From the IMG/VR virus record IMGVR_UViG_3300032676_001346, positions 1 through 36,725 of that record: a stretch of 36,725 nucleotides of DNA. One strand, 5' to 3'. Below are positions 7,075 to 33,110 of this stretch, one piece after another. This DNA is from a virus. The position numbers were made by a program, and so were the translations under genes. A model generated the notes under the pieces. That model was given only the letters and a program-made list of their open reading frames with translations, made no database searches and had not been told where the DNA came from. Every line of letters begins with the position of its first letter. Within the stretch, counting starts at the first letter, position 1.

Positions 7075-8710
7075 CGTAGCATTCCTCAGACAGCGCGTAG
7101 GAGGCCGCGTCCCACGGGTGTTTGTGAATGCTCCCCTTCTGAATCAGGGCGCTCCCGGTGGCAGGCTTCCTCAAGCTCCGGTTCGCCTCGATGAGCTTGG
7201 GGCAGAGGTCGCGGGAGAAGAACGATCGCCCCTCGAAAAGCATCCGCTTCCACAGGTCAATGCGGCCGGAAAGCGTCCCCGGCCCCCGCCCGGCCGCCTG
7301 AAGCACGATCGGGGATGCCAACGTCACCGGCACGATGAGCCTGCTCTTGAGGCCCCGCTTCAACGCCGGGTTGGTGATTTCGACTTCGCCCCGCTGAATG
7401 GCCAAGGTGCTCGCCTCATAAATCAACTGGGCAAGGAACCGCTCGCTGTCCCCAGACTGGCGCCGCTCGAATACGCTCCGGTCGCTCCAGTAGGTCCACG
7501 CGACGTGCTTTGGCGGAACTTCAAGGACGTTCATCCACCAGCACATCCGCCAAATCAACGCCCATGTGAATTCCTGTAGATCGTGGGACTTCCCCACCAC
7601 CACGACTTCATCGAGGAACTTGATGATCGGTTTGGTGATCTCCTTCACCGTGCCGTCGGCCAGCGGGGTCCGCTCCACGACCTTCAACACCTTCTCGTAG
7701 ATGACCGCTGCGGAGTTGACGGAGTCGCCAGGGTCCATCCCCACCCCCAAGGCCCGGCACCCTTCCTCGGGCATCAGCAACACGGGATCAGGGTCCGATG
7801 GCGGGTTGGGGTCCTCCGGGATGACGTGGAACTTTGGCCGGAACTGCTCGTAGAACAGGGCATCGGTGGATGCCGTCACCCATTCCCCGCGCCAGTAGCG
7901 GGCAACCAGGTCATGATCGTGGGCCAGGGACGCCAGCAGGTTGTCCTTCTGCTCTTGGCTGAGGTAAACATTATCGTCGATGCCGACTTCGATCAGCCGG
8001 AGTGAGTTGCGGAGGGGTAGCAGGATCTTGGGGTCCTCAATGTCAGGGAACAGCTTGAGGATGTCGTCCAGCGTTTCGCAGTTCGGGAGTTCGTACCAGA
8101 GCTTGTAGATCCAACTAGACGATCCTGCGTCGGCCGGGTTCGTGTCCCCCAGGAACAGGCAATCGTTCGCCGGGCGGCCGCGGAAGCACAGTTTCAACGT
8201 GTCGAACGTCTTGCGGTTCTCAAACTTTGAAAGCTCGTTTACCCAGATGCAGGAATACTCCTTGCCCTTGAATTTGTCCTCAACCTCACCCTCCACCTTG
8301 AGGGATTCCAGGCTGATCTTCGTTTCATTCCCGAAACGGTTGCTGACTACGCAGGTTGGCTTTTTCGAGTTGTTGGCGATGAACGGTTTTCGCACCCACT
8401 CCATGCCGAAGTTGCCACCTTCGCCGGTTACGGGGTCCCCAATCCACTCCGGGATGTACTTGGTGGTTAGGTGCTCCCACGGGCCGCTATCGGTGCCGGC
8501 TGATTGCGTGATGGTCAGCAGGCACATGTTCCCGTGGTCGGTGTTCCAGGCGTGCTGCACAAACGCCTCCTGACACCCCACGGTTTTCCCGCTGAGGCGC
8601 GGGCCAGAGACCAACACCATGTTTCGAGACCCCGGCAAACACGCCTCCATGATCTCGCGCTGCTTGGCGCAGACGGCGGGATACCAGAATCCGTTTTGGT
8701 CAACCGGCAT
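6995..8710 (-). CDS. terL: terminase large subunit
   Basis: ATG start. Walker A is VLVSGPRLSGKTVGC. A Walker-B-like CIWVNELS follows, then LFLGDTNP. The C-terminal half carries a nuclease-type acidic motif (LGVGMDPGDSVNSAAVIY). 571 aa. Sits opposite the portal operon across a divergent region. Confidence 0.85.
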   Translation of the reverse strand: MPVDQNGFWYPAVCAKQREIMEACLPGSRNMVLVSGPRLSGKTVGCQEAFVQHAWNTDHGNMCLLTITQSAGTDSGPWEHLTTKYIPEWIGDPVTGEGGNFGMEWVRKPFIANNSKKPTCVVSNRFGNETKISLESLKVEGEVEDKFKGKEYSCIWVNELSKFENRKTFDTLKLCFRGRPANDCLFLGDTNPADAGSSSWIYKLWYELPNCETLDDILKLFPDIEDPKILLPLRNSLRLIEVGIDDNVYLSQEQKDNLLASLAHDHDLVARYWRGEWVTASTDALFYEQFRPKFHVIPEDPNPPSDPDPVLLMPEEGCRALGVGMDPGDSVNSAAVIYEKVLKVVERTPLADGTVKEITKPIIKFLDEVVVVGKSHDLQEFTWALIWRMCWWMNVLEVPPKHVAWTYWSDRSVFERRQSGDSERFLAQLIYEASTLAIQRGEVEITNPALKRGLKSRLIVPVTLASPIVLQAAGRGPGTLSGRIDLWKRMLFEGRSFFSRDLCPKLIEANRSLRKPATGSALIQKGSIHKHPWDAASYALSEECYDEMHKAVVQEVRRERRKRNNLVSIGF

Positions 8711-15223: not shown

Positions 15224-15336
15224 GCGATCTTTAGTGTGATGGCTTGAGAGGCTGCCACGCGGCCCCATTACACTTAGTCGGAGCGTGTCCGCCCTGACGG
15301 TCGCCGGCGGCATCGAGAGCCAAAACATTATTGTTT

Positions 15337-17448
15337 ATGGCTGCTCCCGCACCCGATGTCGCAATCTCGTGGCAACTGAATTCCAATTCCTTTGCCAAAT
15401 GCGCCCCCGCCATTGGCACCAACATTCGCCAATGCGGCACGGTCACAATCTGCAACATGAAGCCCCTGACGGCGGACGATCTCACGTCCGTTTACCAGAA
15501 GTCGGGGCAATTCCGCGTGATGAAGGCCCTCCTTCAGCACGACATGGAGTTGAAGATGTGCGCCCCGGTCCAAAACGGGCTGTACGACTTCCTCATGGCC
15601 AACAAGGTGGACCTGCACGGCAAGGTCGAGACCCGCGGGGAGCGCGGCATCGACAAGCTGGACATCATCCCCTTCGTGCTGGCGAAACGCTATCACCCGA
15701 TCAACAACGAGTATTGGATCATCACCAACGGCACGGCTGGCACGTCCGGCGCCGGTGAAAACCCCTCGGATCTGTGGTCGGTTCAGGTGTCCAGCCAAAC
15801 GGGCATCCCCGCCGACGTTCGCTCGTTCCCGCCCCGCCTCGCCGTTTACTGTGAAGGCATGGGCACCGGCGGCACGGCCACGCGCACGGCCTGGACCATC
15901 GTTTCGAGCACCCTGTCCAGCGACGGGACCTACGTCACGCTCGTTTTGGAGGACATGAACCGCGGCGCCCACTTGGCGTCCGCCAAGTCCGCTGCACCCG
16001 TCAACGGCCTGCTCGTTCGCGGCACGCCCAACGTCCACGACGCCGAGCAATGGTGCGCCGAGGCTCCGGCCTACCGGAACTGGACCAAGTTCCCGTTCTT
16101 CTTCCAGACAATCCGCAATTCGTTTTGCTGGTCCGAGCACTACCAGAAGTGGCGGAAGATCGCCCTCGAAAACGACTTCTACCGCGAGTGGTTCGACATG
16201 GACGAAGTCGAGGTCAACAAACAGTTGGCGGTGGATCACCGGAAGCGGTTTGTCCAGTCGTTCTTCCGGCAGACCCCCATCAGCAACTTCCAGACCGCCT
16301 GGGACTACGACAAGCTCGACCCGATCCCGAGCTTCAACCCCGCCGACGAAGGTTTGGCCGGCCTGGGGGTTGACGGCGGCCGATGCGTTGGCTATCGGGC
16401 GAATGCCACCGGCGTGTACGACCAGTTGGCCGAGTGCCATCGGGTGTGGGATATGCAGGGCAGCGTCCCGAGCATCGCGGACCTGGCGATCCTGCTCTAC
16501 AACATGATGCGCGTCCGGGAAGGCCGGGGCCATCCCAAGCCCAAGACCTTCGACCTGTTCACGGACAGCGTTCAGGCCGACGCGATCAACACCGCGTTCC
16601 TGGGATACTACAAGAGCCGCGGCCAGGACATGCTTCGCATCAACGTCGAGGCGGGGAAGTTCTCGAACACCAAGACCGCCGAGTTCGGGTTCCAGTACAC
16701 GACCTTCCAACTGTTCTGGCCACAGGGCGTCACCATCAACGTGATCACCCACGAGTTCTTCGACGACTGGAACACCGCCACCGCCGCCGCCGCCGCGGTA
16801 GGGGGCGCGGGATTCGCTAATTTCGCCAACACCAGCCGCGTTTGGTGGATCTTGGACTGGACCGGCATCTACCCCGGTATCATCGCCAGCAACCGCGTGG
16901 TGAACAAGACCGGCGACCTCAAGAACCTGGCGTCGATCAACCCGTCCTACGCTTGCGTGATGAAGGTTTACACGCAGGAACAGACCCTTACCTCGATGAC
17001 CTACACCGTCATCGTGGACTGCCCGGCGTCCAACGCCATCATCGAGAACATCGGCCCCGGCAGCGGCACGCCCGGCAGCGGCGGTGGCAATACCTGGCTG
17101 TCCGGCCAAGTGGTTGCCGACCCCGTGTGCGCTCCCGTCGGCTACTTCGGCGCCCTTGGTGCCCCGCAGGACGCCAGCAATGCTTGGACGACCACGACCA
17201 GCCAGCACGTTTATACGAACGCGCAGCAGACCGCCACTTGGAGCGACGGCGTGAATACTCACACCGTCACCATCCCGGCTGGCGAATTCCATTCGAGCCG
17301 AGGCCCTGACATCAGCGGCAATGGCTCCCTCATCAGCGCCGACGCCAACGCGCTGGCATTGGAAGCCGCCACCGCCCTGGCCGCCGAACAACAGTTGGCC
17401 GCCAGCCAGACCGTGGGCGGGGCCGAGCCTTCTCAGACGACTGCGTAA
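15337..17448 (+). CDS. major capsid protein candidate (about 700 aa) with C-terminal add-on module; start ambiguous
   Basis: Follows the scaffold candidate and is followed by the strongest terminator in the window. Track start 15331 is TTG, the first ATG is 15337, and another ATG at 15457 (MKPLTADDL...) follows the 11-nt motif. The C-terminal ~70 aa (TVTIPAGEF...SLISADANALALEAATALAAEQQL) match the repeat found in downstream virion proteins. HK97-fold not verifiable by eye. Confidence 0.55.
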   Translation: MAAPAPDVAISWQLNSNSFAKCAPAIGTNIRQCGTVTICNMKPLTADDLTSVYQKSGQFRVMKALLQHDMELKMCAPVQNGLYDFLMANKVDLHGKVETRGERGIDKLDIIPFVLAKRYHPINNEYWIITNGTAGTSGAGENPSDLWSVQVSSQTGIPADVRSFPPRLAVYCEGMGTGGTATRTAWTIVSSTLSSDGTYVTLVLEDMNRGAHLASAKSAAPVNGLLVRGTPNVHDAEQWCAEAPAYRNWTKFPFFFQTIRNSFCWSEHYQKWRKIALENDFYREWFDMDEVEVNKQLAVDHRKRFVQSFFRQTPISNFQTAWDYDKLDPIPSFNPADEGLAGLGVDGGRCVGYRANATGVYDQLAECHRVWDMQGSVPSIADLAILLYNMMRVREGRGHPKPKTFDLFTDSVQADAINTAFLGYYKSRGQDMLRINVEAGKFSNTKTAEFGFQYTTFQLFWPQGVTINVITHEFFDDWNTATAAAAAVGGAGFANFANTSRVWWILDWTGIYPGIIASNRVVNKTGDLKNLASINPSYACVMKVYTQEQTLTSMTYTVIVDCPASNAIIENIGPGSGTPGSGGGNTWLSGQVVADPVCAPVGYFGALGAPQDASNAWTTTTSQHVYTNAQQTATWSDGVNTHTVTIPAGEFHSSRGPDISGNGSLISADANALALEAATALAAEQQLAASQTVGGAEPSQTTA

Positions 17449-17483
17449 GCAACGTCCGGCCTTGAATTGAGGCTTGCAGTTTC

Positions 17484-17518
17484 AAGGCCGGTGCGGTATT
17501 AACCGTACCGGCCTTTTT
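17484..17518 (+). terminator. intrinsic terminator downstream of the capsid gene
   Basis: AAGGCCGGTGCGGT (17484-17497), loop atta, ACCGTACCGGCCTT (17502-17515). This is a 14-bp stem (13 Watson-Crick pairs plus one G-U) running into TTTTT (17514-17518). Confidence 0.7.
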
Positions 17519-17541
17519 GATAATGACCGTATGCTGATTCT

Positions 17542-18180
17542 ATGAGCAACCCCGTCACCGTTCTGTATTTCGTCAAGGAACTCGTTTCCGTACCCTTCAT
17601 GGCCGGCGGTTCCCCTATGTCCTGGGAAGCACTGGGCGACAACAAGGGCAGGGCCAAACTCCCGTCCAATGATCCCCGCGCCGCGGACCTCATCTCCGCT
17701 GCTCAAAAGCAAATCGGAGGCGTGATCCAAGTGAATGCCCAACAATTCGAGGACGTAAAAAAAAACAACCCATACGTACCTCCGGTGCGGCGAGAAAACC
17801 CAGTCCAGCCAATCCCACGCCACGGGGACCTTTTCCCAACTATACCAAAAAAGCGTCCGGGTGTTCCTCCTGCGGTGGGCGTTAATCCCAACCCCGCAGT
17901 TATGAGGCACCCGGCCCCGCCACAGCAACCGAGTTTCGCGGCCGCGGCTCGCTCTCCGTTCCCGCCCCCCGCGCCGAGCGGTGAAGTGCCGACGCCAACC
18001 GCCCCGGCATGGCAGCCCCAGACCGAGAACCCCATCGTGATCCCCGTCTCCGGGAACAAAGGCCCGACCGTGGATCTCAACCCCCCGCCGTTCAAACCCC
18101 GCCGCGGGCGCATCCCCAATGCCGTGAAAGCGGCGATGGCGTTGCAGGCGGAAGCGGCGGCGCAAGGAGTGGCGGCGTAA
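17542..18180 (+). CDS. proline-rich hypothetical virion-module protein (212 aa)
   Basis: ATG start after the terminator. Small globular N-terminal part, then a long Pro-rich region (PPVRRENPVQPIPRH...PPQQPSFAAAARSPFPPPAPSGEVPTPTAP). Ends 1 nt before the next ATG. Confidence 0.55.
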   Translation: MSNPVTVLYFVKELVSVPFMAGGSPMSWEALGDNKGRAKLPSNDPRAADLISAAQKQIGGVIQVNAQQFEDVKKNNPYVPPVRRENPVQPIPRHGDLFPTIPKKRPGVPPAVGVNPNPAVMRHPAPPQQPSFAAAARSPFPPPAPSGEVPTPTAPAWQPQTENPIVIPVSGNKGPTVDLNPPPFKPRRGRIPNAVKAAMALQAEAAAQGVAA

Positions 18181-18181
18181 T

Positions 18182-20182
18182 ATGGCCTCTACCTGGGGAC
18201 AACTGGTAAGCGAGATTACGGCCAACATCTGGCCGACCGGGGAACAACCCGAGCTCGTGCCCGCGCACGCCAAGGCGTTCGTTGACGCCATGAGCGACCT
18301 CCAGAAATTTGTCCCCTGCCTCCAGCAAGACCAGACGAGCCTTTTCCCGGCCTGCTCTACGTACTACCGCTGCGGGCTGTCCATGTTCACCGCCCCGAGG
18401 GGGAGGATTAAGAAGGTATCGGTCATCGTCACCCCCGCCGGATCGCTCTCGCCCAATTACTGCGCGGAAGTGGAGTATCACCAGGTAGCCTTTAAGGACA
18501 TGGAGCTTTGGCTTCGCCGCCTGGGTGAAGGGGCGTTGGGCGGTATGGGGTTCCCTTTTGCCGCGTTCTTTGGTCTGGACTCCTACTCGTGTCGGAAGCC
18601 TATAGCGCCGGTCCCCACTGACGAGGGCCTGCCTGCCGGGCTGCCGCCCTTGCCACTGGGCGTTCACTACGCCCAAGGGTCAACAGATCGTCCGCATTAC
18701 AGGTCGCGGGCGGGGGTGTGGGCCATCGAGCGCGGCACCATCTACATCGCCCCATGGCTCAACACCGTAAACCACCCGGAGACCGTCATCGTGAAATGGG
18801 ACGGCATCAAGCGGACGTGGGGCGCGAACGATCCGATCGACGCCGATCCCGACCTGGCCAGCGCCCTTGAGGAATACGTCCGGTGCGACCATGCCAGGAA
18901 GTTCGACCGCGATTTCACCGTCTCCGAAGTGGCGGGGGAGGCTTACAAGGACATGCTGGCGAAGCTCATGCGGGAATGCCGCGAGGAAAACCGCGTCCGG
19001 GACCGTGAACCTAGCTACGCTCGTCCGGCAACTGTGCTCTACTACAACGACACGGCGTACACAGCCAATGCAACCGCTACCTCCAGTGATTGTCCCTCCG
19101 GGCAAACTGCCCAGGGAACGACATCCGGCACCGCAACCGTACCCGTTGGGTCGGTGGGGTCTTCCATTTCCGTTGCTGATGCCAACGCGCAGGCCCAGGC
19201 GCAGGCGCAGCAACAGGCCAAGGCCAACGCCGTGAGCCTGCTGGTCTGCACCGGCGGCGTTATCACCCCCGGAGGGTGCGCCGGATTCAAATTCTGCAAT
19301 GATACCGGGTACACCCAGCAGGCCCAGCCTCAGTGCGCTTCGGGCCAAACCGGCACAGTGCAGAGCGCGACAGTTGCGGTCGGAACGGTCGGATCGAATG
19401 TTTCCGTTGCCGATGCGAATGCTCAGGCTCAAGCTCTCGCTCAGAGCAATGCCCAGGCTGCCGCGAATGGTACATGCACAGCTTCAACCCCCACCGGCCC
19501 CAAAGTGTGGAACACCGAGCAGCCAAACGTCATCGTCTCTTGTCCCGCCGGGTCATCCGGGAACACGGTCACGATGGCTGTCCCTGCTCACAGAGTCGGG
19601 GTCGTAGCCGCCAGTTCCAGCGCCGAGGACATCGCGCTGGCTCAGGACCAGGCCAACACCAACGCCATCGCGCTGGTGACTGCCCAGGCCAACGCCGCTT
19701 TGAAATGCTCGACGTGCAACCCCGAAACGCAGGTCGAAGTCGTTGTTGCGTGGGCAGGCACCCCTCCTCACATCCCGGTTCGACGGGTCGCCACCATCCC
19801 AGCAGGCACGATTTGCAGTCCCTACGGGATCGCGGTCGTCAACGCGCTTATGGGGCTGTTCACCCAGGCGATGAACATGCCGAACCCTCAGATCCATTCG
19901 GACATCGCCTCAACCACTCCGGGAGTGTCAACGGCCAGCCTGCCCGCCGCCTTCAACGGAGTTGCCGGCGCTGCCACCGTCATCGTCACGGTCACGGTTC
20001 CGGTTGGCGTGGTTACGGGGTCGACCGTCGGCGTTGCCAACGGGAGCGCACAGACCATCGCACAGCAACTCGCGTCCACCATCGCCGCGGCGATCGTTCC
20101 GGCTCAGGCCGGCAACAACACCTACACCTTCCGATGGGGCGGCACGGCTGGATGGTCCGGGGGACTGGAAGAACTCACATGA
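18182..20182 (+). CDS. virion protein: T7 gp11-like adaptor candidate N-domain fused to tandem Cys-framed repeats (666 aa)
   Basis: The N-terminal ~280 aa (LVSEITANIWPTGEQPEL ... LEEYVRCDHARKFDRDF...) loosely resemble tail tubular A/adaptor proteins. Residues ~286-512 are three ~65-70-aa repeats plus a degenerate fourth. ATGA overlap with the next gene. Confidence 0.55.
   Translation: MASTWGQLVSEITANIWPTGEQPELVPAHAKAFVDAMSDLQKFVPCLQQDQTSLFPACSTYYRCGLSMFTAPRGRIKKVSVIVTPAGSLSPNYCAEVEYHQVAFKDMELWLRRLGEGALGGMGFPFAAFFGLDSYSCRKPIAPVPTDEGLPAGLPPLPLGVHYAQGSTDRPHYRSRAGVWAIERGTIYIAPWLNTVNHPETVIVKWDGIKRTWGANDPIDADPDLASALEEYVRCDHARKFDRDFTVSEVAGEAYKDMLAKLMRECREENRVRDREPSYARPATVLYYNDTAYTANATATSSDCPSGQTAQGTTSGTATVPVGSVGSSISVADANAQAQAQAQQQAKANAVSLLVCTGGVITPGGCAGFKFCNDTGYTQQAQPQCASGQTGTVQSATVAVGTVGSNVSVADANAQAQALAQSNAQAAANGTCTASTPTGPKVWNTEQPNVIVSCPAGSSGNTVTMAVPAHRVGVVAASSSAEDIALAQDQANTNAIALVTAQANAALKCSTCNPETQVEVVVAWAGTPPHIPVRRVATIPAGTICSPYGIAVVNALMGLFTQAMNMPNPQIHSDIASTTPGVSTASLPAAFNGVAGAATVIVTVTVPVGVVTGSTVGVANGSAQTIAQQLASTIAAAIVPAQAGNNTYTFRWGGTAGWSGGLEELT
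19037..19717 (+). repeat. three tandem protein-level repeats (DUF5977-like, from memory)
   Basis: R1 (19037-19249) is YYNDTAYTANATATSSDCPSGQTAQGTTSGTATVPVGSVGSSISVADANAQAQAQAQQQAKANAVSLLVC. R2 (19286-19477) is FKFCNDTGYTQQAQPQCASGQTGTVQSATVAVGTVGSNVSVADANAQAQALAQSNAQAAANGTC. R3 (19502-19717) is KVWNTEQPNVIVSCPAGSSGNTVTMAVPAHRVGVVAASSSAEDIALAQDQANTNAIALVTAQANAALKCSTC. A degenerate fourth copy lies at ~19967-20101. Confidence 0.7.
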
Positions 20183-23100
20183 GCATCAACCTTGGATTTA
20201 TCACCGTGGCGCCGTGCGCGAACACGGTTCCGCCGCCCGACTCGCGTTGCTCCGATCCAGCATTCGCGCTGGCTAACCCGGACATTTGCAGCGCCCCGCA
20301 GCCTACCTTGGTCATCAAACCCGGCATGGCGATCGCCTGCACCCTTGGCAGCGTCCAGTTCAAGGCGTTCCTCCAGGACACCACCGGGGAGACCGACGTT
20401 ACGACCGATACCGTGTTTTCGTCTTCTGACCCCACGATTGCCGTGGTGGGGGCCACGTCCGGGAACTGCACCGGCGTGGGGTCCGGCGAGGCGCAGATTT
20501 CTGCCTCCTACCAGACCTACACGGCTTTTGCTTCCATCACCGTCATGGCGGGGAGCGATTGCTGCTCGTCCCGGACGGTGGCGTTCCTGCTGCTGGTGGA
20601 CGTGACCAAATCCATGTCGGCGTCGTTCGACGCCAATTATTCGACCCGCCTCAAGTTCGCCGCCGCCGCGGCCCGCCAGTTCATTACCAAGGTGCGGAGA
20701 AAGGATCGCGTCGGTCTGACCACGTTCACGGGAGTTTCCAGCACTTTCCTGGCTCCAATCGGGACGCAGGCCGCCGCGCTGGCGGCCATACCGAGCATCG
20801 CGCAGACTCAGGACACCACCGGATTCACTTCCGCCATTACTCAGGCGGTATCCGACCTCAACAACTCGGTCTCCGACCAGCGGGTGCTCGTCATTATCTC
20901 CGATGGCGAGGATGAGACATCAGCCGAGTCCGCCGATGCCGGGGTGGACCCCATCACTACGGCCGACAATTTCAAGCAGGCCGGCGGCATCGTTATCTGC
21001 CTCGGCGTGCGGGCCTCTGGCACCGCGAACGGCTACGCGCTCCTGTCCGAGCTTGCCACCGGGGGGTTCTTCCTCAACGCCCTTCCGGCCAACGAAACGA
21101 CCATCCTGGACTACCTCACGGGCCTCATGGGGTACATGTGCGCCGGTGACTGCACGCCCGAAGGTGACGTGATCGTCGGTCAAGGGGAACTCAACTTCAC
21201 CGCCTTCCAGAATTGGAGCGTCACTGGGGGCCGCGTTGACCTTTTGGGAAATGGCTTCTTCGATGTGCTGCCGGGCAACGGTCTGTACGTCAACCTGGCG
21301 GGCACGTCGGCCCCACACGACGGGGTGATGACCAGCAAATCCGCGTTCCCTATCGTCTCCGGCCACGACTATCGGCTGTCGGTCAAGCTGGCTGGAAATC
21401 AGGTCAACCCTGACTCGGGTGCCGCCGTTCAAGTCTCCGTGGTTGGGGCTTCTTCGGACCTGCTCCAGAGCATCGTTCTTTCGGATTACACGTCCGGGTT
21501 TCATACGTATAACTACACCTTCACCGCCACGGCGACGGACTCCGCCCATATCGTCATCCAGCAGAACGACACCGGCACTCCGCCTGATCCGCAATGGGGG
21601 TGCCTCCTGAAAGAAGTCACGCTGACGGACGTGACGGACGACGTTACGTTGTTCGACGACACCTTCTCCGGGGACAATCTCGTTTACGTCCCGCCGCGCT
21701 GCGGCACCGGAACGACCTACATCCAAGGCTACGGCTATTACACGGGCAGCGATTGCGCCTATCAGGATACGTGCCTCAGCACGCCGCCCCCGAGCCAGGC
21801 GGCGGACCCCAACGCCATTGCCGACATCGAATCCAGCGGAGGAGGGACCACGGGGCCGAGCGGGCCGCCGGCAACGTGCGGACCCACATCGCAGACCTAC
21901 ACGGCGACGTGCCCCGCCGGTCAGACACAACTCAACCCGACGCCGATCACGGCCAAGGCGTCGAGCACCGGGAACAACATCCAGGCCGCCCTCAACGGGC
22001 TGGTGTGGGCGCTTCCCCATGCCGCCTTCGAGACGGACCCCACGGACCAGGTGGAGAACATCGGAGGGGACCCCGGCACGCTTTACACGGCGAACCTGCT
22101 TATCCGCGGGTCCGTCGAACTAAAGGGGTATGGCGCACAGCCCCCCAACACACCCGGCGGCGTCACCATCGCTCCGATTGCTGGCACCGGCGGCATTGCC
22201 GCGCTGGCCACGTTGAACACGGGGAATAGCTTCCCCAATGGCGAACTGCTGGCGACAGACCCTCAGAACGAGTACCTGCTGATCATCTCAAATCCTCCCC
22301 AGATAATCGCCCTCAACAATTCCCCGTCGAACACCAGCCTGGCCGGCCAAAACAACGTCCAGGTGGTTCGATACCCGTTGGCGGTCCAAATGTACGGCGG
22401 AGCCACGGTTACGCTGACGGCCCGCACGATTGACGGCAAGGACTGGGGCGGCATCAACCCCGTCCCCCGGCAAACCCAAGACCCGCCGTTCATCCTGATC
22501 CAGAACCCGTTCTTCAATTCTCCCACGGGCGGGCAATGGCTCCAGATGGACGTGCTCTCCGTGCTCGGGGGGACTGGTGCCCAAACGTTCCCCTACAAAT
22601 ACACGCTCACGCTGGCTGCCGCGGCGACCGCCGCTTACTACTCGATCACCAACTCGACACTCGCGGCCAACTCCCCAACCGACTGGACACTGCAAGGGAG
22701 CAACGACGGTTCGACGTGGACGCTGATCGATGCCCGCGCCGGAATGAGCCTGAGCGCCGCCGCCACATACCGATTCCCCATCGAGACCCCCGCCGCATAC
22801 ATCTACTATCAGGTCGTGTTCACGGCTACCAGTAACAGCCTGTTCCCCACCTTGAGCGGGGTCAGCGTTTATCCGGCGGCCGTACCGGCGGTTGGGAACG
22901 GTTCGGCCAGCGGCGTGTCACCGGACTGCGGCACCGGCGCCGCGCTGGCCGCCGCCAAGCTCCAGGCCAATGCGGCCTTGGCCGGCCAGTGCTTCCCGCT
23001 GTTCACGGCGCAGGAGACCTACACGGCGAATTGCGCCGTTGGGTCCGGGAGCGCGGTGGGAAGCGGCACGGCCCAGTCCTACAATTCTCAGGCGGAGGCG

Positions 23101-23724
23101 AACGCCGCCGCCCTGGCCATCGCCAAACAGTCCGCGCTGGCGGCGCTGGTGTGCGGCGCGAACAACAACTCGGCGGTAGTCAGCGTGAACAACCTCGACC
23201 GCCTCGACGGCCCGTTCTCGCCCTACCCATCGCTGGCGGTGATTGCCGATCCCGGTTTCGTCATCGGCCCGACGCACGGCATCAAGGTGACGTTGAAGGG
23301 GTTCAATAACGTGTACGCCTCGGACGTGGGGATCGTGCTGATGGGGCCGGACGGCACTTGCGCGACCCTCATGGCCAACTGCTGGGGGTCTCGGAACGTG
23401 GCGGCGGTGGATGTCGTGGTCTGCGAGTACACTGGCATCCTGATGCCCTTCGGCTCCACGGCAAGCCCGACAATCCCGACACCGGGCCAGAAGTATCTCC
23501 CGACCGCCGGGTGGGCTGGCAATGTGAGCGTGTGGAACGCGGCATCGTGGGCGATGGCATCGGGCAAGACCGGCCCGACTGATCCTCTCCCGTGTGACCT
23601 TACGGTGTTCAACGGGAAGAACCCCGCCGGCAACTGGCAGCTATTCATGGCGCACTTCATCAACGAGCCGCCCGTGGGGGGATCTATATCCGGGTGGACA
23701 ATCGAGTTCACCGACACGCAGTAG
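20179..23724 (+). CDS. 1181-aa multidomain adhesin-like virion protein (Big_2 + vWA + jelly-roll + discoidin-like + P-domain)
   Basis: True start is taken as ATG 20179 (ATGA overlap with the upstream stop). The track's 19333 start is an out-of-frame overlap artefact. Big_2-like segment: SVQFKAFLQDTTGETDVTTDTVFSSSDPTIAVV...ISASYQTYTAFASITV. vWA segment: VAFLLLVDVTKSMS...GLTTFTG...DTTGFTS...VIISDGED. Jelly-roll segment: ELNFTAFQNWSVTGGRVDLLGNGF...YRLSVKLAG. Discoidin-like segment: PTDWTLQGSNDGSTWTLIDA. P-domain-like C-terminus: IKVTLKGFNNVYASDVGIVLMGPDGTCATLM...FNGKNPAGNWQLFMAHF...GGSISGWTIEF. Confidence 0.75.
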   Translation: MSINLGFITVAPCANTVPPPDSRCSDPAFALANPDICSAPQPTLVIKPGMAIACTLGSVQFKAFLQDTTGETDVTTDTVFSSSDPTIAVVGATSGNCTGVGSGEAQISASYQTYTAFASITVMAGSDCCSSRTVAFLLLVDVTKSMSASFDANYSTRLKFAAAAARQFITKVRRKDRVGLTTFTGVSSTFLAPIGTQAAALAAIPSIAQTQDTTGFTSAITQAVSDLNNSVSDQRVLVIISDGEDETSAESADAGVDPITTADNFKQAGGIVICLGVRASGTANGYALLSELATGGFFLNALPANETTILDYLTGLMGYMCAGDCTPEGDVIVGQGELNFTAFQNWSVTGGRVDLLGNGFFDVLPGNGLYVNLAGTSAPHDGVMTSKSAFPIVSGHDYRLSVKLAGNQVNPDSGAAVQVSVVGASSDLLQSIVLSDYTSGFHTYNYTFTATATDSAHIVIQQNDTGTPPDPQWGCLLKEVTLTDVTDDVTLFDDTFSGDNLVYVPPRCGTGTTYIQGYGYYTGSDCAYQDTCLSTPPPSQAADPNAIADIESSGGGTTGPSGPPATCGPTSQTYTATCPAGQTQLNPTPITAKASSTGNNIQAALNGLVWALPHAAFETDPTDQVENIGGDPGTLYTANLLIRGSVELKGYGAQPPNTPGGVTIAPIAGTGGIAALATLNTGNSFPNGELLATDPQNEYLLIISNPPQIIALNNSPSNTSLAGQNNVQVVRYPLAVQMYGGATVTLTARTIDGKDWGGINPVPRQTQDPPFILIQNPFFNSPTGGQWLQMDVLSVLGGTGAQTFPYKYTLTLAAAATAAYYSITNSTLAANSPTDWTLQGSNDGSTWTLIDARAGMSLSAAATYRFPIETPAAYIYYQVVFTATSNSLFPTLSGVSVYPAAVPAVGNGSASGVSPDCGTGAALAAAKLQANAALAGQCFPLFTAQETYTANCAVGSGSAVGSGTAQSYNSQAEANAAALAIAKQSALAALVCGANNNSAVVSVNNLDRLDGPFSPYPSLAVIADPGFVIGPTHGIKVTLKGFNNVYASDVGIVLMGPDGTCATLMANCWGSRNVAAVDVVVCEYTGILMPFGSTASPTIPTPGQKYLPTAGWAGNVSVWNAASWAMASGKTGPTDPLPCDLTVFNGKNPAGNWQLFMAHFINEPPVGGSISGWTIEFTDTQ

Positions 23725-28166: not shown

Positions 28167-28508
28167 CTACACTTTCAATGGTGAGTCCGTCCACGTATAA
28201 ACGGCTTCCTCAGTTTGTGGTTGTGGTTTCTCAATCGAAGGCAATTCATCGAGCGGGCGGAACCGCTCCGGTTTGAAGCCGCGCTCCACGCCGGGGCGGC
28301 CAACGGCATCCGGGTTCCTCAATCCGACCAGCAGCACGCGGCCGGTGCCCACGCTCTGCCCGTTGCGCTGGTAAGGCTCCTGGCCGATGAGCAGGTCGCG
28401 GATGACGTAAACCTTCCCCTTGACCGGCAGAGTCGTGTACAGGGCCGCTATGGGCGGATCAAAGGTATCGTCAACGCATGCGACGTGCTGGCCAACGGTA
28501 AAGCTCAT
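28167..28508 (-). CDS. hypothetical protein (113 aa)
   Basis: The ATG at 28508 overlaps the GT2 stop (ATGA). Sequence MSFTVGQHVACVDDTFDPPIAALYTTLPVKGKVYVIRDLLIGQ... looks like a small beta-barrel. The longer track ORF (to 28841) is an out-of-frame extension over the GT2 gene. Confidence 0.5.
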   Translation of the reverse strand: MSFTVGQHVACVDDTFDPPIAALYTTLPVKGKVYVIRDLLIGQEPYQRNGQSVGTGRVLLVGLRNPDAVGRPGVERGFKPERFRPLDELPSIEKPQPQTEEAVYTWTDSPLKV

Positions 28509-29470
28509 AACGGCAACCCGAATTTCCCGCAGAACCACGCCATGTCCCGCTTGAACCGCTTCCGGTTCTCCGCCCTCGTGGTCTCGATGGTGTGAAGGTG
28601 GTTCCTCAACAGGATCATTAGGCGGTTCTGAATGTCGGCGGTGGTGTGCGCCCACAGCAGCCGCTCGTACTTCTCCGAAACGGTGTCCGGGAAAAGCAGG
28701 GTCTTGATCCCGAACAGCTTGTTCCACACCGGCCAGTGAGGATCGATCCCGAACTGCTGCCACATCGGCACCTTCCCGGAGTTGAACTTGTGCCCGATCC
28801 TCACGTTCCTCATGAACCGAACGTCGCCCCCGGATAGCCACGCGGACAGGGAAAGGCTTAGCTCGTCACAACCCCAAGCTCGGAGGTTCTTCAACGGCGC
28901 CAGTTCCAAATACCACAGCCTCGGCATGAAGTAGCAAGCGCCCATGATGGCCGGAAGTTCGCAGTCATCTACCTTCGGTTCCGTCCGGCCATTCTTGAGA
29001 TGCCACACCACTTCGAGCACCTGCATCGCCCCCCGGCCTCCGAGGTCCGGCCCGAACATGTTGATCGTGGCCCCTTCGTAAACGGCCTGGGGCTGGAGTG
29101 GGTCCATGTGCCGTTCGTCCAGCCCGAGGCAGGTAGCGCAATGGAGGGTGTGCGGACGGCCTTCAACGCGCCGCATGGCGTTCTCGTACCAGCCCTCGGT
29201 GAAGCGCATGTGGCTGTCCACAAAGAGCAGCACGTCGCTCGAGGCGTTTACCGCCCCGATGTGCCGCGATGCCCCCACGCCAATCCTGGCGCGGTTGGTG
29301 ACGAGGGTGATGCCGTCAAGGTGGGTGAGATACCTCTCAACCGAGGTATCGGAGAGGTCGTCCACCACGACGATTTCAGGATGGAACCCCGCCGTCGCCC
29401 GGATGCTCCTGACAGTGGCGATAAGCTCCTGCGTGTCGTTGTGGGTGGGGATGACGATGGAGAGGGTCAT
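28505..29470 (-). CDS. family-2-type (GT-A) glycosyltransferase (321 aa)
   Basis: MTLSIVIPTHNDTQELIATVRSI...EIVVVDDLSD...LLFVDSHMRF has the classic GT2 N-terminal signature, an acidic DD(x)D motif and a D-x-H motif, as in GalNAc-transferase-like GT-A enzymes. Confidence 0.8.
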   Translation of the reverse strand: MTLSIVIPTHNDTQELIATVRSIRATAGFHPEIVVVDDLSDTSVERYLTHLDGITLVTNRARIGVGASRHIGAVNASSDVLLFVDSHMRFTEGWYENAMRRVEGRPHTLHCATCLGLDERHMDPLQPQAVYEGATINMFGPDLGGRGAMQVLEVVWHLKNGRTEPKVDDCELPAIMGACYFMPRLWYLELAPLKNLRAWGCDELSLSLSAWLSGGDVRFMRNVRIGHKFNSGKVPMWQQFGIDPHWPVWNKLFGIKTLLFPDTVSEKYERLLWAHTTADIQNRLMILLRNHLHTIETTRAENRKRFKRDMAWFCGKFGLPL

Positions 29471-29757
29471 TTCGTTTCGTTCTGTTTTGATGCCATGTAA
29501 TCCGCTGTCTTCGGGTCAACGGCGGCGATTTCATCAAGGGTTATCCCCAAGTCAATCAGAAGACGATCCCCGCACTGCCTGAATATGGAAGGATCGAAAG
29601 ACCGTCTAAGGTCGTTTTGCTGAATCAGCCGGCCTAGCCCACGTAGAAAGTTCACGCAAGCTTTTACTTGGATGATCTTGGCCTCTTTGATTCGGGCGTC
29701 CGTCTCCTTCGGGGTAAGCCTGGACTTGAATTCTTCTTCTGTCAGTAGGTATTTCAT
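29467..29757 (-). CDS. hypothetical protein (96 aa), lower GC
   Basis: ATG start. ATGA overlaps at both ends (29754-57 and 29467-70). Helical, charged composition. Confidence 0.5.
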   Translation of the reverse strand: MKYLLTEEEFKSRLTPKETDARIKEAKIIQVKACVNFLRGLGRLIQQNDLRRSFDPSIFRQCGDRLLIDLGITLDEIAAVDPKTADYMASKQNETK

Positions 29758-29981
29758 TGGACTTGGAATGGGGATACGGGCGTAGTGGCTGCGCTGAACG
29801 TAGCCAGCATATTCAACCTGTCCATGCTAACCTCACCTGACAAGATAGCCGCGCAAACGAGATGCCGAATGGCTCCTTCAAGTTCGTCGGCGCGGAGCAT
29901 GGGTTTACCTTCAAACCTCTTACTGTGCAGTATCTCGATTGCGGCAGCGTCGTGGGCCTCGATGAGTTCTTTATCGGTCAT
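29754..29981 (-). CDS. hypothetical protein (75 aa)
   Basis: ATG start, ATGA overlap with the downstream gene, helical composition. Confidence 0.5.
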   Translation of the reverse strand: MTDKELIEAHDAAAIEILHSKRFEGKPMLRADELEGAIRHLVCAAILSGEVSMDRLNMLATFSAATTPVSPFQVQ

Positions 29982-30314
29982 AGTTCAAAGCTCTCCAGCC
30001 CGCGCAATATATCCCCCAAAGGCCAGGTCACCAGTCAGATAGTGGGCCTTACTAGAATGGGGTTTAGAAAGATCAGTTCGCGGGCTGGAAATCATAAAAT
30101 CAGTTGCAGCCGAAAGCCCAACAGAAGGCTTTCCCTTTGAATCCCACTTGGTAGATCATGCTATGGAATGGCATATACCGATCCTCCAATCCAGATACCT
30201 GCATGATCATCATGGACGGTAGGACTTTGACTTAGGACTCCCCCTCCTTCATGGGGATTACCGGAGTGCCTTCCGCCTTGGCTTCATCGAATACCTTTTG
30301 CGTGATGGGGTCCA

Positions 30315-31094
30315 TTACGCCGTCCTCCCCTTGGGCCTCACGTCGGCCAGCGCCCCGCCCCATCCGTTAAGTTCGGCGGTCCACTGCCCGTGCCATCCGA
30401 ACTGCCCGGAGTAGGGAAGATTCTCGCAACTGAACCGGGCGGCGATTTTCTCCGGCGCGAACTTGATCCCGTGTTCCTTTTCGAGCCACGATCGCCACGT
30501 CCGGCATGGGTGCATGTCCGAGGAAATCTGTCCGGCTTTGACCATCGGGTCGTCCTTGAAGTGCGCCAGGGCGTCGGCGGTGCCACAGCAATACTTCACG
30601 CTGCGGAGTGAGAACCCGCCGTTGCCTACGTTGTTGGTCTCCCCGTCGCACGCCGGCCAGCCCGGTTCGTGGTGCGGCGGCCAAGGAGATCCGATGTAGT
30701 CGTAGCTCATCCAGATGTCGCCCCAGATGTGGCCGGTAACGCCGTCCCGTTCCTGCCACGCCCACGGGTTGGCTATTCCCGAGTCCCATTCCATGAACAG
30801 GACGTGGCTGGTCTTGACGCCGTTGCCATGGCGCCCCGGCTCAACCAGCGCGGCGAACTCGTAATCCACCGGCAGGGGGTAATGGTCCGCACGGGGGCAC
30901 TTCACCTTCCGGTCACTCTCGGTGTGATGCACGGTGCGGATGTTGGACGCGCCGATGCGCCAACGCTGCGTGTCGGTCAGGAGGACCGCCTCCGCGAACT
31001 CAACGTGACGCATGGCGTCCCGCATGGCCCGCAGCGTCCGGTCAGGGTGAACTGTGTCTATGGCGAACAGGGTTACTTGGGGCAGATGGATCAT
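30315..31094 (-). CDS. DUF5672-like putative glycosyltransferase (~259 aa)
   Basis: VTLFAIDTVHPDRTL..., YIGSPWPP... and VGNGGFSLRSVKY match my recollection of DUF5672 (IGAPW / GNGGFSLR). The ATG at 31094 forms an ATGA overlap with the upstream stop. An alternative ATG lies at 31118. Confidence 0.6.
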   Translation of the reverse strand: MIHLPQVTLFAIDTVHPDRTLRAMRDAMRHVEFAEAVLLTDTQRWRIGASNIRTVHHTESDRKVKCPRADHYPLPVDYEFAALVEPGRHGNGVKTSHVLFMEWDSGIANPWAWQERDGVTGHIWGDIWMSYDYIGSPWPPHHEPGWPACDGETNNVGNGGFSLRSVKYCCGTADALAHFKDDPMVKAGQISSDMHPCRTWRSWLEKEHGIKFAPEKIAARFSCENLPYSGQFGWHGQWTAELNGWGGALADVRPKGRTA

Positions 31095-32413
31095 TTTCTC
31101 TCGCACCTTTCTTTCCATGCATCCAGGGCCACGTCGAGGGAGTCTTTATCCTTCAACCCGTGAATCCAAGCGGCATCGTGTTTGATGATGGCATCCCGTA
31201 GCGGTTCGTAATCCCGCTTCGTGATGGTGTTTTGGGCGTAGGTGCCAGGCAGGTTCCCCGAGATCGGGACGCCAGAAATGTGCGCCAGCCCGCTCAGGAA
31301 CCTGTCGTCGAACCCGCCCTCCAGAATCTCTGGGTAGCGGGCATGGGCCGCCAGCATGGCCTTGGCGCTCGCCCGGTCGAACACCAGCGGGGGAACGGCG
31401 TAGCGCGGCGAGATGAAGCGCAACGGCTCCGTATTCTGCGCCAGGCAACCCCATAGGCCCGACGCGGGCGAAATCGTTTGGTGCAGGCAGATCGAATCGT
31501 ACTCGAACCAGACCGCGTGAGCATACTGCGAGGCGCAGAACATCTTGAGGATGGCGACGATCTTCTGTGCCTTCCGGGCGCCCGCGTAGCTGTCCAGCCC
31601 CAGATGGAACGTCTGATGATCACCGGGCAGAGCCAAGGGGTGATCCGTGGGGGAGATCATCCAGATTGGAAACCCGTGGTTGCGCCAGAAAGACATGTGC
31701 CGTTCCGTGGTTTCCTTCGCCTCGGCGTGGGTAAGGACAATAGCCACCATGCCTTCGGGCGCAATGCGCTCTTGGGGGCAGGCGTAATTCGTGGCTCGCT
31801 CGATGCGGTGAGCCTCGACCGCTTTCCACCGATGCTCATACAGCCATTTATTTTTTACCAACCCGTTGGGGAAGTGGACGCATTGGCTGTGAAGGTGTCC
31901 GGCGTGGGTGACGAGCTTTGAAAGAGCAATCGGCGGCCCTTTGTGCCACGCCTGAAACACCATCAAGTCGGATGTGTGCTGCCTGCCATCGATCAGCGTG
32001 GCGCACTGATTCCCGAGCTTGAAGGCATCCAGGAACCCGGCCAGCCCCTCCCGTGTCGCGTAGATGCAGCACGGGGACGCAGGGCTTTCCAGGCAAACCA
32101 CATTGCCCGTGGGCACGTCCTCCGGTCGCAGGGAGAAGTTGATCACGTCGTAGTCAGTGAACACGCCAGGGGCAACCTGCTGGAACGCCAGCCACCGAAG
32201 CCAGCAGGACATTTCAAACCGGCGGTCGTTGACCGTGGGGAGTGCCTTGCACGTCGCCTCAATTTCGGTAAACCGGGGGTTCGCCCTAGCGTCCGCTTCG
32301 GTCATTACCCTTGGAGTGAACCCGTTGGCCTCCCACGACTCGCGCCAGCATTCAATCAGCCGGTCGGGGTAGTTTGGGGCCTTCGGGTTATCGAAGTAGC
32401 AAAAGACGTTCAT
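31091..32413 (-). CDS. two-domain putative glycosyltransferase (GT32/Gly_transf_sug-like DXD domain + second GT-A-like half)
   Basis: N-terminal half: MNVFCYFDNPKAP...CWRESWEANGF...SCWLRWLAFQQVAPGVFTDYDVIN, which follows the capsule-type DXD pattern. C-terminal half: VAIVLTHAEAKE...AVWFEYDSICL. The ATG at 32413 is in an ATGA overlap. The track start at 32449 is GTG. Confidence 0.6.
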   Translation of the reverse strand: MNVFCYFDNPKAPNYPDRLIECWRESWEANGFTPRVMTEADARANPRFTEIEATCKALPTVNDRRFEMSCWLRWLAFQQVAPGVFTDYDVINFSLRPEDVPTGNVVCLESPASPCCIYATREGLAGFLDAFKLGNQCATLIDGRQHTSDLMVFQAWHKGPPIALSKLVTHAGHLHSQCVHFPNGLVKNKWLYEHRWKAVEAHRIERATNYACPQERIAPEGMVAIVLTHAEAKETTERHMSFWRNHGFPIWMISPTDHPLALPGDHQTFHLGLDSYAGARKAQKIVAILKMFCASQYAHAVWFEYDSICLHQTISPASGLWGCLAQNTEPLRFISPRYAVPPLVFDRASAKAMLAAHARYPEILEGGFDDRFLSGLAHISGVPISGNLPGTYAQNTITKRDYEPLRDAIIKHDAAWIHGLKDKDSLDVALDAWKERCERK

Positions 32414-33108: not shown

Positions 33109-33110
33109 AA

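Follow-up and report, generated by a model that had tools for sequence, protein, structure and literature searches.

DUF5977 (Pfam PF19404) is a repeat of large bacterial surface proteins. In its canonical form it is present as 10–25 tandem copies in proteins of 1300–2700 aa, which also have SprB, BACON, RHS and fn3 matches, and it has been listed among the stalk domains of fibrillar-adhesin-like proteins (PMC8286594). The literature we searched describes no role for DUF5977 in phages, and neither an experiment nor a solved structure was found for it, so a spacer function, an adhesive function and a disulfide bond of this module are all things that we infer. Fraser et al. 2006 (J Mol Biol) reportedly describe Ig-like accessory domains (I-set, FN3 and BIG2) on phage structural proteins. 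The BIG2 domain of phi29 gp8 and the extension of T7 gp10B are displayed at the C-terminus of HK97-fold capsid proteins, outside the shell. T4 Hoc is a comparison case for Ig-like accessory domains on virion proteins (PMC10385173). Mycobacteriophage Che8 is known to encode the O-glycosylation of its own capsid protein (Freeman et al. 2023, as cited in PMC13445384).

The window analyzed here is the whole 36,725-nt stretch of viral DNA (IMG/VR record IMGVR_UViG_3300032676_001346, positions 1 to 36,725), which belongs to a probably podovirus-like phage lineage with genomes of about 72–76 kb. A first-pass annotation had proposed that one module, resembling DUF5977, is shared by a capsid candidate, an adaptor candidate and a giant protein, and the peptides it quoted are all encoded where it placed them. 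A lineage profile (modC4) was compiled from 462 modules that homologous proteins on other contigs carry, without any sequence of the window, and every one of the window's 406 six-frame ORFs was searched with it. The matches were confined to the major capsid protein (MCP), the adaptor and the giant protein, with the next ORF at E >= 0.9, as the proposal had it. The Pfam model detected the module directly only in the adaptor: a six-frame genome scan with PF19404 gave the same three places as the protein search, and neither the capsid tail nor any giant-protein segment nor the fourth adaptor copy was matched, even at E <= 10. That the capsid and giant-protein segments are DUF5977 too is supported by relatives that pass Pfam at homologous positions and by profile-profile comparison. 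We further mapped 446 homologue modules by position onto the window proteins, and scored 2000 composition-preserving shuffles of each segment. For the capsid tail, the fourth adaptor copy and the giant-protein segments A (21886–21969) and B2 (23005–23154), all 2000 stayed below the real score, whereas for segment B1 (22909–22980) one shuffle attained it.

The module consensus is Y-x-N...C-P-x-G...V-T-V...S-x-x-S-Q-A-D-A-[DN]...A-x3-A-x3-A...L-x-C. The structure prediction that the first-pass annotation had suggested was run with AF2 and gave strand-strand-helix in the adaptor (pLDDT about 87–96) and the capsid (about 88–90), that is, a predicted beta-hairpin followed by a helix of 22–25 residues. 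Among the 462 modules, the helix has invariant Ala at every fourth position (i, i+4, i+8, i+12) and a Ser-x-x-Ser-Gln cap, and conserved Ser and Thr are abundant. Conserved Ser32 and Ser35 lie at the expected helix N-cap in the model and are expected to have a structural role there, while the strong conservation of the helix face could mark a binding surface. One Cys follows strand 1 and another stands just past the helix end, both being present in 416 of the 462 modules. The description as Cys-framed does not apply to the capsid copy, which has no Cys. A disulfide may join the two conserved Cys; virion assembly takes place in the reducing cytoplasm, and any such bond would therefore have to form after release. 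At the DNA level the copies have a mean column identity of 54% and share just short imperfect repeats. This divergence excludes that the copies arose by recent duplication or through faulty assembly, in agreement with the earlier reading.

The adaptor protein carries three tandem copies and possibly a fourth:
18182–19015, plus strand: N-terminal adaptor domain, aa 1–278, pLDDT > 90
19037–19249, plus strand: DUF5977 module 1 (Cys304...Cys356), Pfam 37.9 bits, modC4 40.3 bits
19313–19477, plus strand: DUF5977 module 2 (Cys385...Cys432), Pfam 44.5 bits, modC4 36.5 bits
19508–19711, plus strand: DUF5977 module 3 (Cys454...Cys509), Pfam 17.2 bits (E 0.008), modC4 27.8 bits (i-E 5e-8)
19964–20095, plus strand: possible degenerate fourth module, weak (modC4, shuffles, homologues, AF2)

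In Foldseek searches, the adaptor domain matched portal-tail adaptor chains of cyanophage A4 (E 3e-6), SU10, GP4 and VP1, further chains of phicrAss001, Pa223, KHP30 and N4, and weakly T7 gp11. Its BFVD matches, of 200–250 aa, carry the names 'head to tail adaptor' or 'tail tubular protein A'. Judged by its predicted fold, the N-terminal part of ~280 residues is thus of the podophage portal-tail adaptor type (tail tubular protein A, T7 gp11-type), which bears out the 'neck' label. As in podophages, the gene comes after the MCP gene, from which a 212-aa ORF alone separates it. Typical podophage adaptors have about 200–250 aa, whereas the window adaptor adds a C-terminal DUF5977 extension of ~380 aa.

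PF19404 matched the adaptor protein with E 3.7e-18 and 66.3 bits in total over three stretches, two copies lying over the cut-off and the third being weaker, and modC4 likewise found all three tandem copies that had been noticed. Both Cys are invariant in 54 homologues in module 1 and also invariant among homologues in module 2. AF2 places strands at 293–299 and 314–320 and a helix at 331–353 in module 1 (pLDDT about 90), and module 3, which has an insertion ahead of the helix, is also predicted with high confidence. For the degenerate fourth copy, the modC4 match (19964–20077) reaches just 5.4 bits (i-E 0.56), but the segment alone scores 11.9 bits vs a shuffle maximum of 8.3, a fourth module is present in 46 of 63 adaptor homologues, some of which map to this place, and AF2 predicts a strand at 599–605 and a helix at 616–638 (pLDDT 73–84). 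These observations weakly support a genuine copy.

The giant protein is encoded directly downstream, its ATG and the adaptor's TGA overlapping as ATGA at 20179–20182, a junction that marks the two adjacent genes as translationally coupled:
20179–23724, plus strand: 1181-aa appendage protein with Big_2-like, VWA, split module with discoidin-like insert, intact module and C-terminal beta-rich domain
21886–21969, plus strand: split DUF5977 module, N-terminal half (TSQTYTATCPAGQT...), modC4 columns 6–35 only, 10.7 bits, i-E 0.012
21970–22908, plus strand: insertion of ~313 aa within the split module, holding a discoidin/F5-8C-like domain at about 22588–22836
22909–22992, plus strand: split module, C-terminal half (SPDCGTGAALAAAKLQANAALAGQC), modC4 columns 34–57, complementary to the N-terminal half
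23005–23154, plus strand: intact DUF5977-type module (ETYTANC...ALVC), modC4 35.5 bits, i-E 2.2e-10

Pfam finds VWA_2 at aa 137–244 (E 1.3e-11) and weak F5/8 type C matches at 804–886, and PHROG 'tail protein' matches at 818–884 (E 1e-9); domains of the homologues include Big_2, VWA, F5_F8_type_C, DUF5977 and P_proprotein. The giant-protein segments had been read as copies of the module. They do belong to the module, but the three pieces are one split and one intact copy. The N-terminal half is conserved in position across the homologues, and in three short ones (P0130, P0182 and P0188) the two halves adjoin and make up a full module of 38–53 bits. The alignment with these unsplit homologues shows a clean insertion between the halves. 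Across 60 homologues the insert has 95–357 aa (median 134), and in homologues P0128 and P0129 Pfam F5_F8_type_C is situated between the halves. The C-terminal half by itself scores 6.3 bits (22909–22980, i-E 0.28); 96 homologue modules map to it at aa 900–939, with a short 'C-x-ATATS-x-ISQADAD...LNC' form. The order N-terminal half, C-terminal half, full module is the commonest pattern among 120 giant proteins, and from these alignments segments A and B1 are evidently two halves of one module. To the intact module map 112 homologue modules, and when its clade profile was compared with adaptor-type modules in hhalign, the probability was 97.1% (E 5.3e-11).

The capsid copy stands at the end of the MCP:
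15337–17448, plus strand: MCP gene, encoding 703 aa if it starts with the ATG at 15337, analyzed as 663 aa from 15457
17149–17208, plus strand: disordered Thr-rich linker from the MCP core to the module (...NAWTTTTSQ), residues 565–584, pLDDT < 50
17209–17415, plus strand: C-terminal DUF5977-type module without Cys (modC4, hhalign, orthologues, AF2)

The ATG at 15337 is most likely the start, the conserved N-terminus of the homologues beginning upstream of 15457. The AF2 model (pLDDT 76.4) matched the Vibrio phage VP1 capsid (Foldseek vs PDB, E 3.7e-14), the phicrAss001 MCP (E about 1e-11) and many further HK97-fold capsids, and on this predicted fold the candidate is an HK97-type MCP, in accord with the 'head' label. 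The module was matched by modC4 at 17209–17391 (17.1 bits, i-E 1.2e-4, profile columns 2–56). The HMM-HMM comparison set beforehand as a refutation test gave, for the capsid-tail clade profile against adaptor-type modules, 97.8% probability (E 9.9e-13); with the giant-protein value above, it leaves the claim of relatedness standing. At the homologous position, C-terminal modules of capsid orthologues score 30–50 Pfam bits, above the cut-off, and those of the nearest clade 19–24 bits. The window copy has Trp at the first Cys position, no terminal Cys and a 9–10-residue insertion (RGPDISGNG), and the nearest clade, of three members, also lacks both Cys. AF2 predicts two strands and a helix at 623–653.

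As in phi29 gp8 and T7 gp10B, the MCP is extended C-terminally of its HK97 core, but here by another module on a disordered poly-Thr tether, and its exposure on the shell is assumed by analogy with other HK97-fold capsids. Only 15 of 119 MCP homologues have it, vs 62 of 63 adaptors and 114 of 119 giant proteins, and the MCP-core tree needs at least four gains or losses. The capsid module is thus, from its distribution, patchy and accessory. Among five near-complete relatives searched, all PF19404 matches fall in MCP, adaptor or giant frames in four (three at 95–100% completeness, one at 88%). A distant complete relative searched with PF19404 has no copy at all.

The similarity beyond the adaptor might be thought mere Ala/Gln/Thr-rich low complexity, with Pfam silent on capsid and giant protein and high bias terms in the HMMER output. 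The shuffles, the hhalign values, the positional homology with relatives that pass Pfam and the silence of all other window ORFs with modC4 make this very improbable, and for the capsid tail and segment B2 it is effectively refuted; it is a possible explanation of the fourth adaptor copy alone. The capsid copy, the most degenerate of all, could be a decaying remnant, acquired once or more and now functionless or trimmed at maturation. Its lost Cys, its insertion, the Pfam scores falling to none in the window and the patchy distribution would agree. However, strand-strand-helix is still confidently predicted, neither the D-A-N motif nor any of the four invariant Ala has been lost from the helix, and four clade members retain the module at 47–60% tail-segment identity, so we regard a pure vestige as rather unlikely.

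A shared docking role, in which modules bind each other or a common partner and the giant protein attaches to the adaptor collar, possibly also to the capsid, through the Ala-faced helix, would suit the nearly constant presence of modules on both adaptor and giant protein, their coupled genes, and an Ala spacing of the type seen in tight helix packing. We consider it unlikely: the predicted module is self-contained at high confidence, its Ala face is most simply explained by intramolecular packing, 10–25 copies in single bacterial chains are typical of stalks and not of docks, and the 104 of 119 capsids without module count against an essential docking role for the capsid copy. Quite unlikely, too, is that the Ser/Thr-rich module serves as substrate of the glycosyltransferase island (28167–34700), putting glycans on head, neck and appendage. 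GT2-family enzymes are encoded nearby, Ser and Thr are plentiful, and Che8 offers a precedent, with which the window phage shares glycosyltransferases encoded near virion genes and a Ser/Thr-rich MCP C-tail as potential O-glycan acceptor. Against this stands the structural place of Ser32 and Ser35. Mucin-type transferases favour Thr/Pro-rich stretches that are disordered, a preference that suits the poly-Thr linker better than the module. The linker, unlike in Che8, would be the better candidate acceptor on the capsid; 81 of 119 MCP homologues, with or without module, have its TTTT run in their C-tail, and the adaptor and giant-protein modules have no comparable flanking Thr tract.

These analyses show that the segments are homologous, if only weakly for the fourth adaptor copy, and they establish the protein identities, the split-module architecture and the patchy distribution. 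We think it probable, with some reserve, that all these old, divergent copies represent a single small autonomous fold, DUF5977, which domain shuffling spread to three neighbouring structural genes in an uncultured phage lineage, and which would serve as a surface-exposed spacer, display or weakly adhesive unit and not as a part required for assembly. On the adaptor, three to four tandem modules would lengthen the protein. On the giant protein, a discoidin-type lectin-like domain is grafted into the hairpin loop of one module, with the second, intact module connecting to the C-terminal domain. On the capsid, a single module without Cys on its tether would be an optional decoration. The family, the motif and the tandem arrangement on the adaptor are shared with the bacterial repeat, but here just 1–4 copies sit on virion proteins, one copy lacking Cys and one split by a domain. 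Like Ig-like accessory domains and T4 Hoc, the module is small, dispensable and promiscuous, occurs on several virion protein classes, often C-terminally, and is patchy among relatives; both may be exposed at the surface and adhere weakly. Unlike them, it is predicted as hairpin and helix, a fold unrelated to the beta-sandwich, is fused in frame without frameshift, and hosts a nested discoidin-like domain. A bacterial surface-protein repeat would thus have been reused by phages as an add-on to the particle exterior, and the case would belong with the accessory-domain theme familiar from phage Ig-like domains.

The first-pass annotation had placed one module of about 65 amino acids on three virion-protein candidates, and all the peptides it quoted are encoded where it located them. 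The genes concerned lie in a 36.7-kb viral contig whose completeness is about 49% (CheckV).

Features of the window (coordinates, strand, description)
6995-8710, terminase-like gene
upstream of the capsid candidate, +, 496-aa ORF, candidate head gene
15337-17448, +, capsid candidate (major capsid protein, MCP)
17542-18180, +, Pro-rich 212-aa ORF between the MCP and adaptor genes
18182-20182, +, adaptor candidate, 666 aa
20179-23724, +, giant protein, 1181 aa, its start overlapping the adaptor stop codon

By position, the ORFs of 848 aa and 496 aa upstream of the MCP gene are portal and scaffold candidates, and two GT2 glycosyltransferases are also encoded in the window, away from the module genes. 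The start of the MCP is most likely the ATG at 15337 (window 15331-15460), which gives 703 aa, because the Met at 15457 is preceded by an N-terminal motif common to all homologues, 'FAKCAPAI.TNI.QCGTVT.CN'. The Pro-rich ORF has no family match in Pfam or PHROG and is kept in all copies of the phage recovered from other samples. The adaptor stop and the giant start overlap at 20179-20182 (ATGA), which suggests translational coupling of these two module-bearing genes. An exact-protein look-up of the giant protein returned copies of the same phage only.

The adaptor modules were confirmed as DUF5977 by the Pfam profile PF19404, which gives the protein as a whole 66.3 bits against a gathering cut-off of 25 bits. 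Taken singly, copy 1 (37.9 bits) and copy 2 (44.5 bits) exceed the cut-off, and copy 3 reaches 17.2 bits. When all six frames of the record were scanned with PF19404, the matches were confined to these three places in the adaptor. The capsid C-terminus of the window has no PF19404 match even at E <= 10, and neither the A and B segments of the giant protein nor the isolated segment of a proposed fourth adaptor copy is matched by this profile. Since PF19404 is blind to these regions, a more sensitive and independent test was needed. Homologue searches in metagenomic contigs, the longest about 83 kb, yielded at least 119 proteins like the capsid candidate, at least 119 like the giant protein and 63 like the adaptor. 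Precomputed PF19404 annotation is present on a subset of the capsid homologues, on many giant homologues and, with a single exception, on those of the adaptor. From the relatives' proteins a lineage profile (modC4) was built iteratively with 462 modules, the window's own proteins being excluded. Run against the complete set of 406 six-frame ORFs from the window, it matches only the three proteins named in the first-pass annotation, the best-scoring other ORF having an E of at least 0.9.

Module copies in the window scored with the lineage profile (copy, coordinates, bits, i-E)
adaptor copy 1, 19037-19228, 40.3 bits, 6.8e-12
adaptor copy 2, 19313-19468, 36.5 bits, 1.1e-10
adaptor copy 3, 19508-19711, 27.8 bits, 5.3e-8
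adaptor copy 4, 19964-20077, 5.4 bits, 0.56
capsid tail, 17209-17391, 17.1 bits, 1.2e-4
giant A, 21886-21969, 10.7 bits, 0.012
giant B1, 22909-22980, 6.3 bits, 0.28
giant B2, 23005-23154, 35.5 bits, 2.2e-10

The capsid tail aligns with the lineage profile end to end (columns 2-56). Of 2000 composition-preserving shuffles per segment, one reached the real score of giant B1, and none did so for giant A and B2, the capsid tail or adaptor copy 4. Moreover, the HMM-HMM comparison that the first-pass annotation had named as its own refutation test relates both the capsid tail and giant B2 to the adaptor-type modules: against the modules of the adaptor homologues, a capsid-tail profile (the window copy and three relatives) gave 97.8% probability, E 9.9e-13 over 51 columns in hhalign, and a giant-B2 profile gave 97.1%, E 5.3e-11. 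Capsid orthologues carry PF19404 at the same C-terminal position (P0014 49.9, P0008 46.3, P0102 41.6 and P0043 30.2 bits), the closest clade of the window MCP scores lower (P0005 24.3, P0006 23.5 and P0007 19.3 bits), and the series declines in steps to the window copy, which Pfam misses. In giant homologues, PF19404 scores 30.8 bits (P0128) and 42.4 bits (P0129) at the corresponding place. The lineage profile, the shuffles, hhalign and the graded orthologue scores together show that the homology is real and no effect of composition; low complexity behind the similarity, against which the shuffles and hhalign speak, is rejected and deserves hardly any credence. Judged from profile-profile evidence and not from the Pfam threshold, the window capsid copy is a divergent DUF5977 member. 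The window copies share 32-60% protein identity and, as the first-pass annotation had stated, have diverged at the DNA level (about 54% identity over aligned columns).

The structural models bear out the identities proposed for two of the proteins. The AF2 model of the capsid candidate (pLDDT 76.4) matches solved capsid proteins of the HK97 fold, with 30 Foldseek matches at E <= 1e-3, nearly all of them phage capsid proteins plus one encapsulin; the best is the Vibrio phage VP1 capsid (E 3.7e-14, TMt 0.59), and the phicrAss001 MCP is found at E about 1e-11. At the sequence level the MCP has no match in Pfam, PHROGs or PDB, and tblastn against GenBank phages gave none, which indicates that no cultured phage there has a related MCP. 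PHROGs gave nothing useful for the adaptor either, and the MCP, adaptor and module profiles found nothing significant among PDB sequences. The N-terminal 280 or so residues of the adaptor candidate (pLDDT > 90) match podophage portal-tail adaptor chains: all 13 Foldseek matches to PDB at E <= 1e-3 are podophage portal/tail complexes (TMt 0.27-0.48), including those of A4, SU10, GP4, VP1, phicrAss001, Pa223, KHP30 and N4, with T7 gp11 matching weakly. In BFVD the same region matches viral proteins of 200-250 aa named 'head-to-tail adaptor' or 'tail tubular protein A'. As matching adaptors are normally of this length, the DUF5977 region is a C-terminal extension of about 380 aa. The fourth copy proposed in this extension is statistically weak (5.4 bits, i-E 0.56) but has positional support, for a fourth module is present in 46 of 63 adaptor homologues, some mapping onto the window region 19964-20077, where the AF2 model has a strand and a helix.

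The consensus of the 462 modules is yyNstQsyTAtCppgptGspVTvtvpAgtvtStiSQADADakAlAaAqaqAqAaLnCt, in which Cys12, Gly18, Ser32, Ser35, Gln36, Ala39, Ala43, Ala47, Ala51, Leu55 and Cys57 are nearly invariant. The core motif tested, S-x-x-S-[QV]-x-[DE]-A-[DN] with Ala at i+4, i+8 and i+12 and then L-x-C, occurs in giant B2 and in the first three adaptor copies; the capsid copy keeps it save the Gln and the final Cys, and giant B1 retains only the Ala-helix and the final Cys. According to AF2 models based on family alignments, the module consists of two short strands and then a helix of 22-25 residues, with pLDDT of about 87-96 for adaptor modules 1-3 and about 88-90 for the capsid copy, which has an insertion of 9-10 residues (RGPDISGNG) before the helix. 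The description of the module as Cys-framed is right for adaptor copies 1-3 and giant B2 but not for the capsid copy, where Trp replaces the first Cys and the terminal Cys is missing. Both cysteines occur in 416 of the 462 modules, the six of the adaptor modules, in the pairs Cys304-Cys356, Cys385-Cys432 and Cys454-Cys509, are invariant or nearly so in 54 homologues, and both are lost in the window capsid copy and the three relatives nearest to the window MCP. This pattern fits a putative disulfide pair. A PDB profile search found no solved structure that contains the module; its sole match, 9mt4_I (E 0.66), was rejected as chance.

In the giant protein, segments A and B1 are the halves of a single split module; a reading as two independent degenerate copies was rejected on complementary columns, unsplit homologues and a clean insertion. 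A matches columns 6-35 of the lineage profile and B1 columns 34-57; the first module is unsplit at the same position in the short homologues P0130, P0182 and P0188 (856-871 aa, 38-53 bits); and in a five-way alignment a discoidin-type domain (...W.FEGSNDG..WT.LD...) cleanly interrupts the module between '...CPxGxxN...' and '...C.TATATSxISQxDAD...'. The giant protein thus carries one split and one intact module, in keeping with the family norm of two, and the most frequent arrangement among the 120 giant proteins listed is an N-half followed by a C-half and then a full module. The insert measures 95-357 aa in 60 homologues (median 134) and about 313 aa in the window, where it includes an F5/8C-like region (aa 804-886). 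A discoidin-like domain nested in a split module is an unusual arrangement. In split-module homologues, e.g. P0128 (aa 575-745), extra cysteines flank the insert on both sides (...LVPC[insert]PVCATATATS...); a putative second disulfide could clamp the base of the insertion. The giant protein has VWA and discoidin-like domains, to which homologues add Big_2 and proprotein-convertase P-domain matches, and from its gene position and a PHROG 'tail protein' match we infer that it is a virion appendage.

The module is near-universal in adaptor and giant homologues and present in 15 of the 119 MCP homologues listed (at least 119 exist); a FastTree phylogeny of the MCP core, computed without the module columns, requires at least four changes to account for its presence on the capsid. 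Five near-complete relatives of 72-76 kb were searched, two of them recorded with terminal repeats; in four of the five, every PF19404 match falls within the MCP, adaptor or giant frames. The complete 81.5-kb genome of a distant relative (G004, found via L068; MCP about 29% identical) lacks any DUF5977 match, so the module is not universal in the wider lineage. Beyond the lineage, a search of 1.84 billion proteins with a thin profile of four window module sequences gave 396 cluster representatives at E <= 1e-3. The long ones contain 7-25 DUF5977 repeats with SprB, BACON, RHS, fn3 or pectate-lyase-like matches, and DUF5977 is listed among the stalk domains of fibrillar-adhesin-like proteins (PMC8286594). 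The non-window protein closest to the window modules in this search, P0306 (1232 aa), combines 7 repeats with a pectate-lyase-like domain (PF12708) and has the make-up of a putative tailspike or depolymerase on a DUF5977 stalk. An adaptor homologue, P0300, is named 'MAG TPA: DUF5977 domain-containing protein, partial [Terriglobales bacterium]' at NCBI, which may hint at an Acidobacteriota host or at a phage contig binned into a MAG.

We consider it probable that the module is an accessory, surface-exposed spacer or display unit. In favour are its autonomous folding in the AF2 models, its use in tandem strings by stalk-like bacterial proteins, its dispensability on capsids, the lengthening of the adaptor and, in the appendage, the lectin-like domain that it holds and flanks. 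DUF5977 might also go beyond a passive spacer and be a recognition tag common to head, neck and appendage, an idea we regard as unlikely. Such a tag could be a shared substrate or landing pad of the phage's own glycosylation island, leading to a uniform glycan coat, or an element that binds to itself and so connects the giant protein, with its lectin-like domain, to the adaptor collar and, in certain lineages, to the surface of the capsid. Rather improbable, too, is that the capsid copy is a decaying remnant, and module-module docking is about as improbable. The module as a glycosylation acceptor is slightly less likely still, and the poly-Thr tether of the capsid tail suits this role better.

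A Thr run (TTTT or longer) occurs in the MCP C-tail of 81 of the 119 homologues listed, with or without a module behind it. Where a capsid module exists, the run precedes it; in the window it lies within 17149-17208, a segment disordered in the AF2 model. The tether is a candidate O-glycan acceptor for the glycosyltransferase (GT) island at 28167-34700, and a better candidate than the module itself.

By sequence, the window copies are divergent members of Pfam DUF5977. Ig-like domains reportedly serve as accessory display domains on phage structural proteins (Fraser 2006). The present module acts alike in being patchy and dispensable on capsid proteins, whereas its fold, predicted as two strands and a long helix and not as a beta-sandwich, excludes it from that group. 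Promiscuous accessory domains on phage particles would extend beyond Ig-like folds. DUF5977 is found here in a defined setting, the capsid, adaptor and appendage of one phage lineage, whose natural variants with, without or with a split module offer a tractable route to its role. The split module with its grafted discoidin-like domain is a natural domain insertion that points to a cargo-tolerant hairpin loop, and the conserved poly-Thr tether together with the GT island provides a concrete acceptor candidate for phage self-glycosylation.
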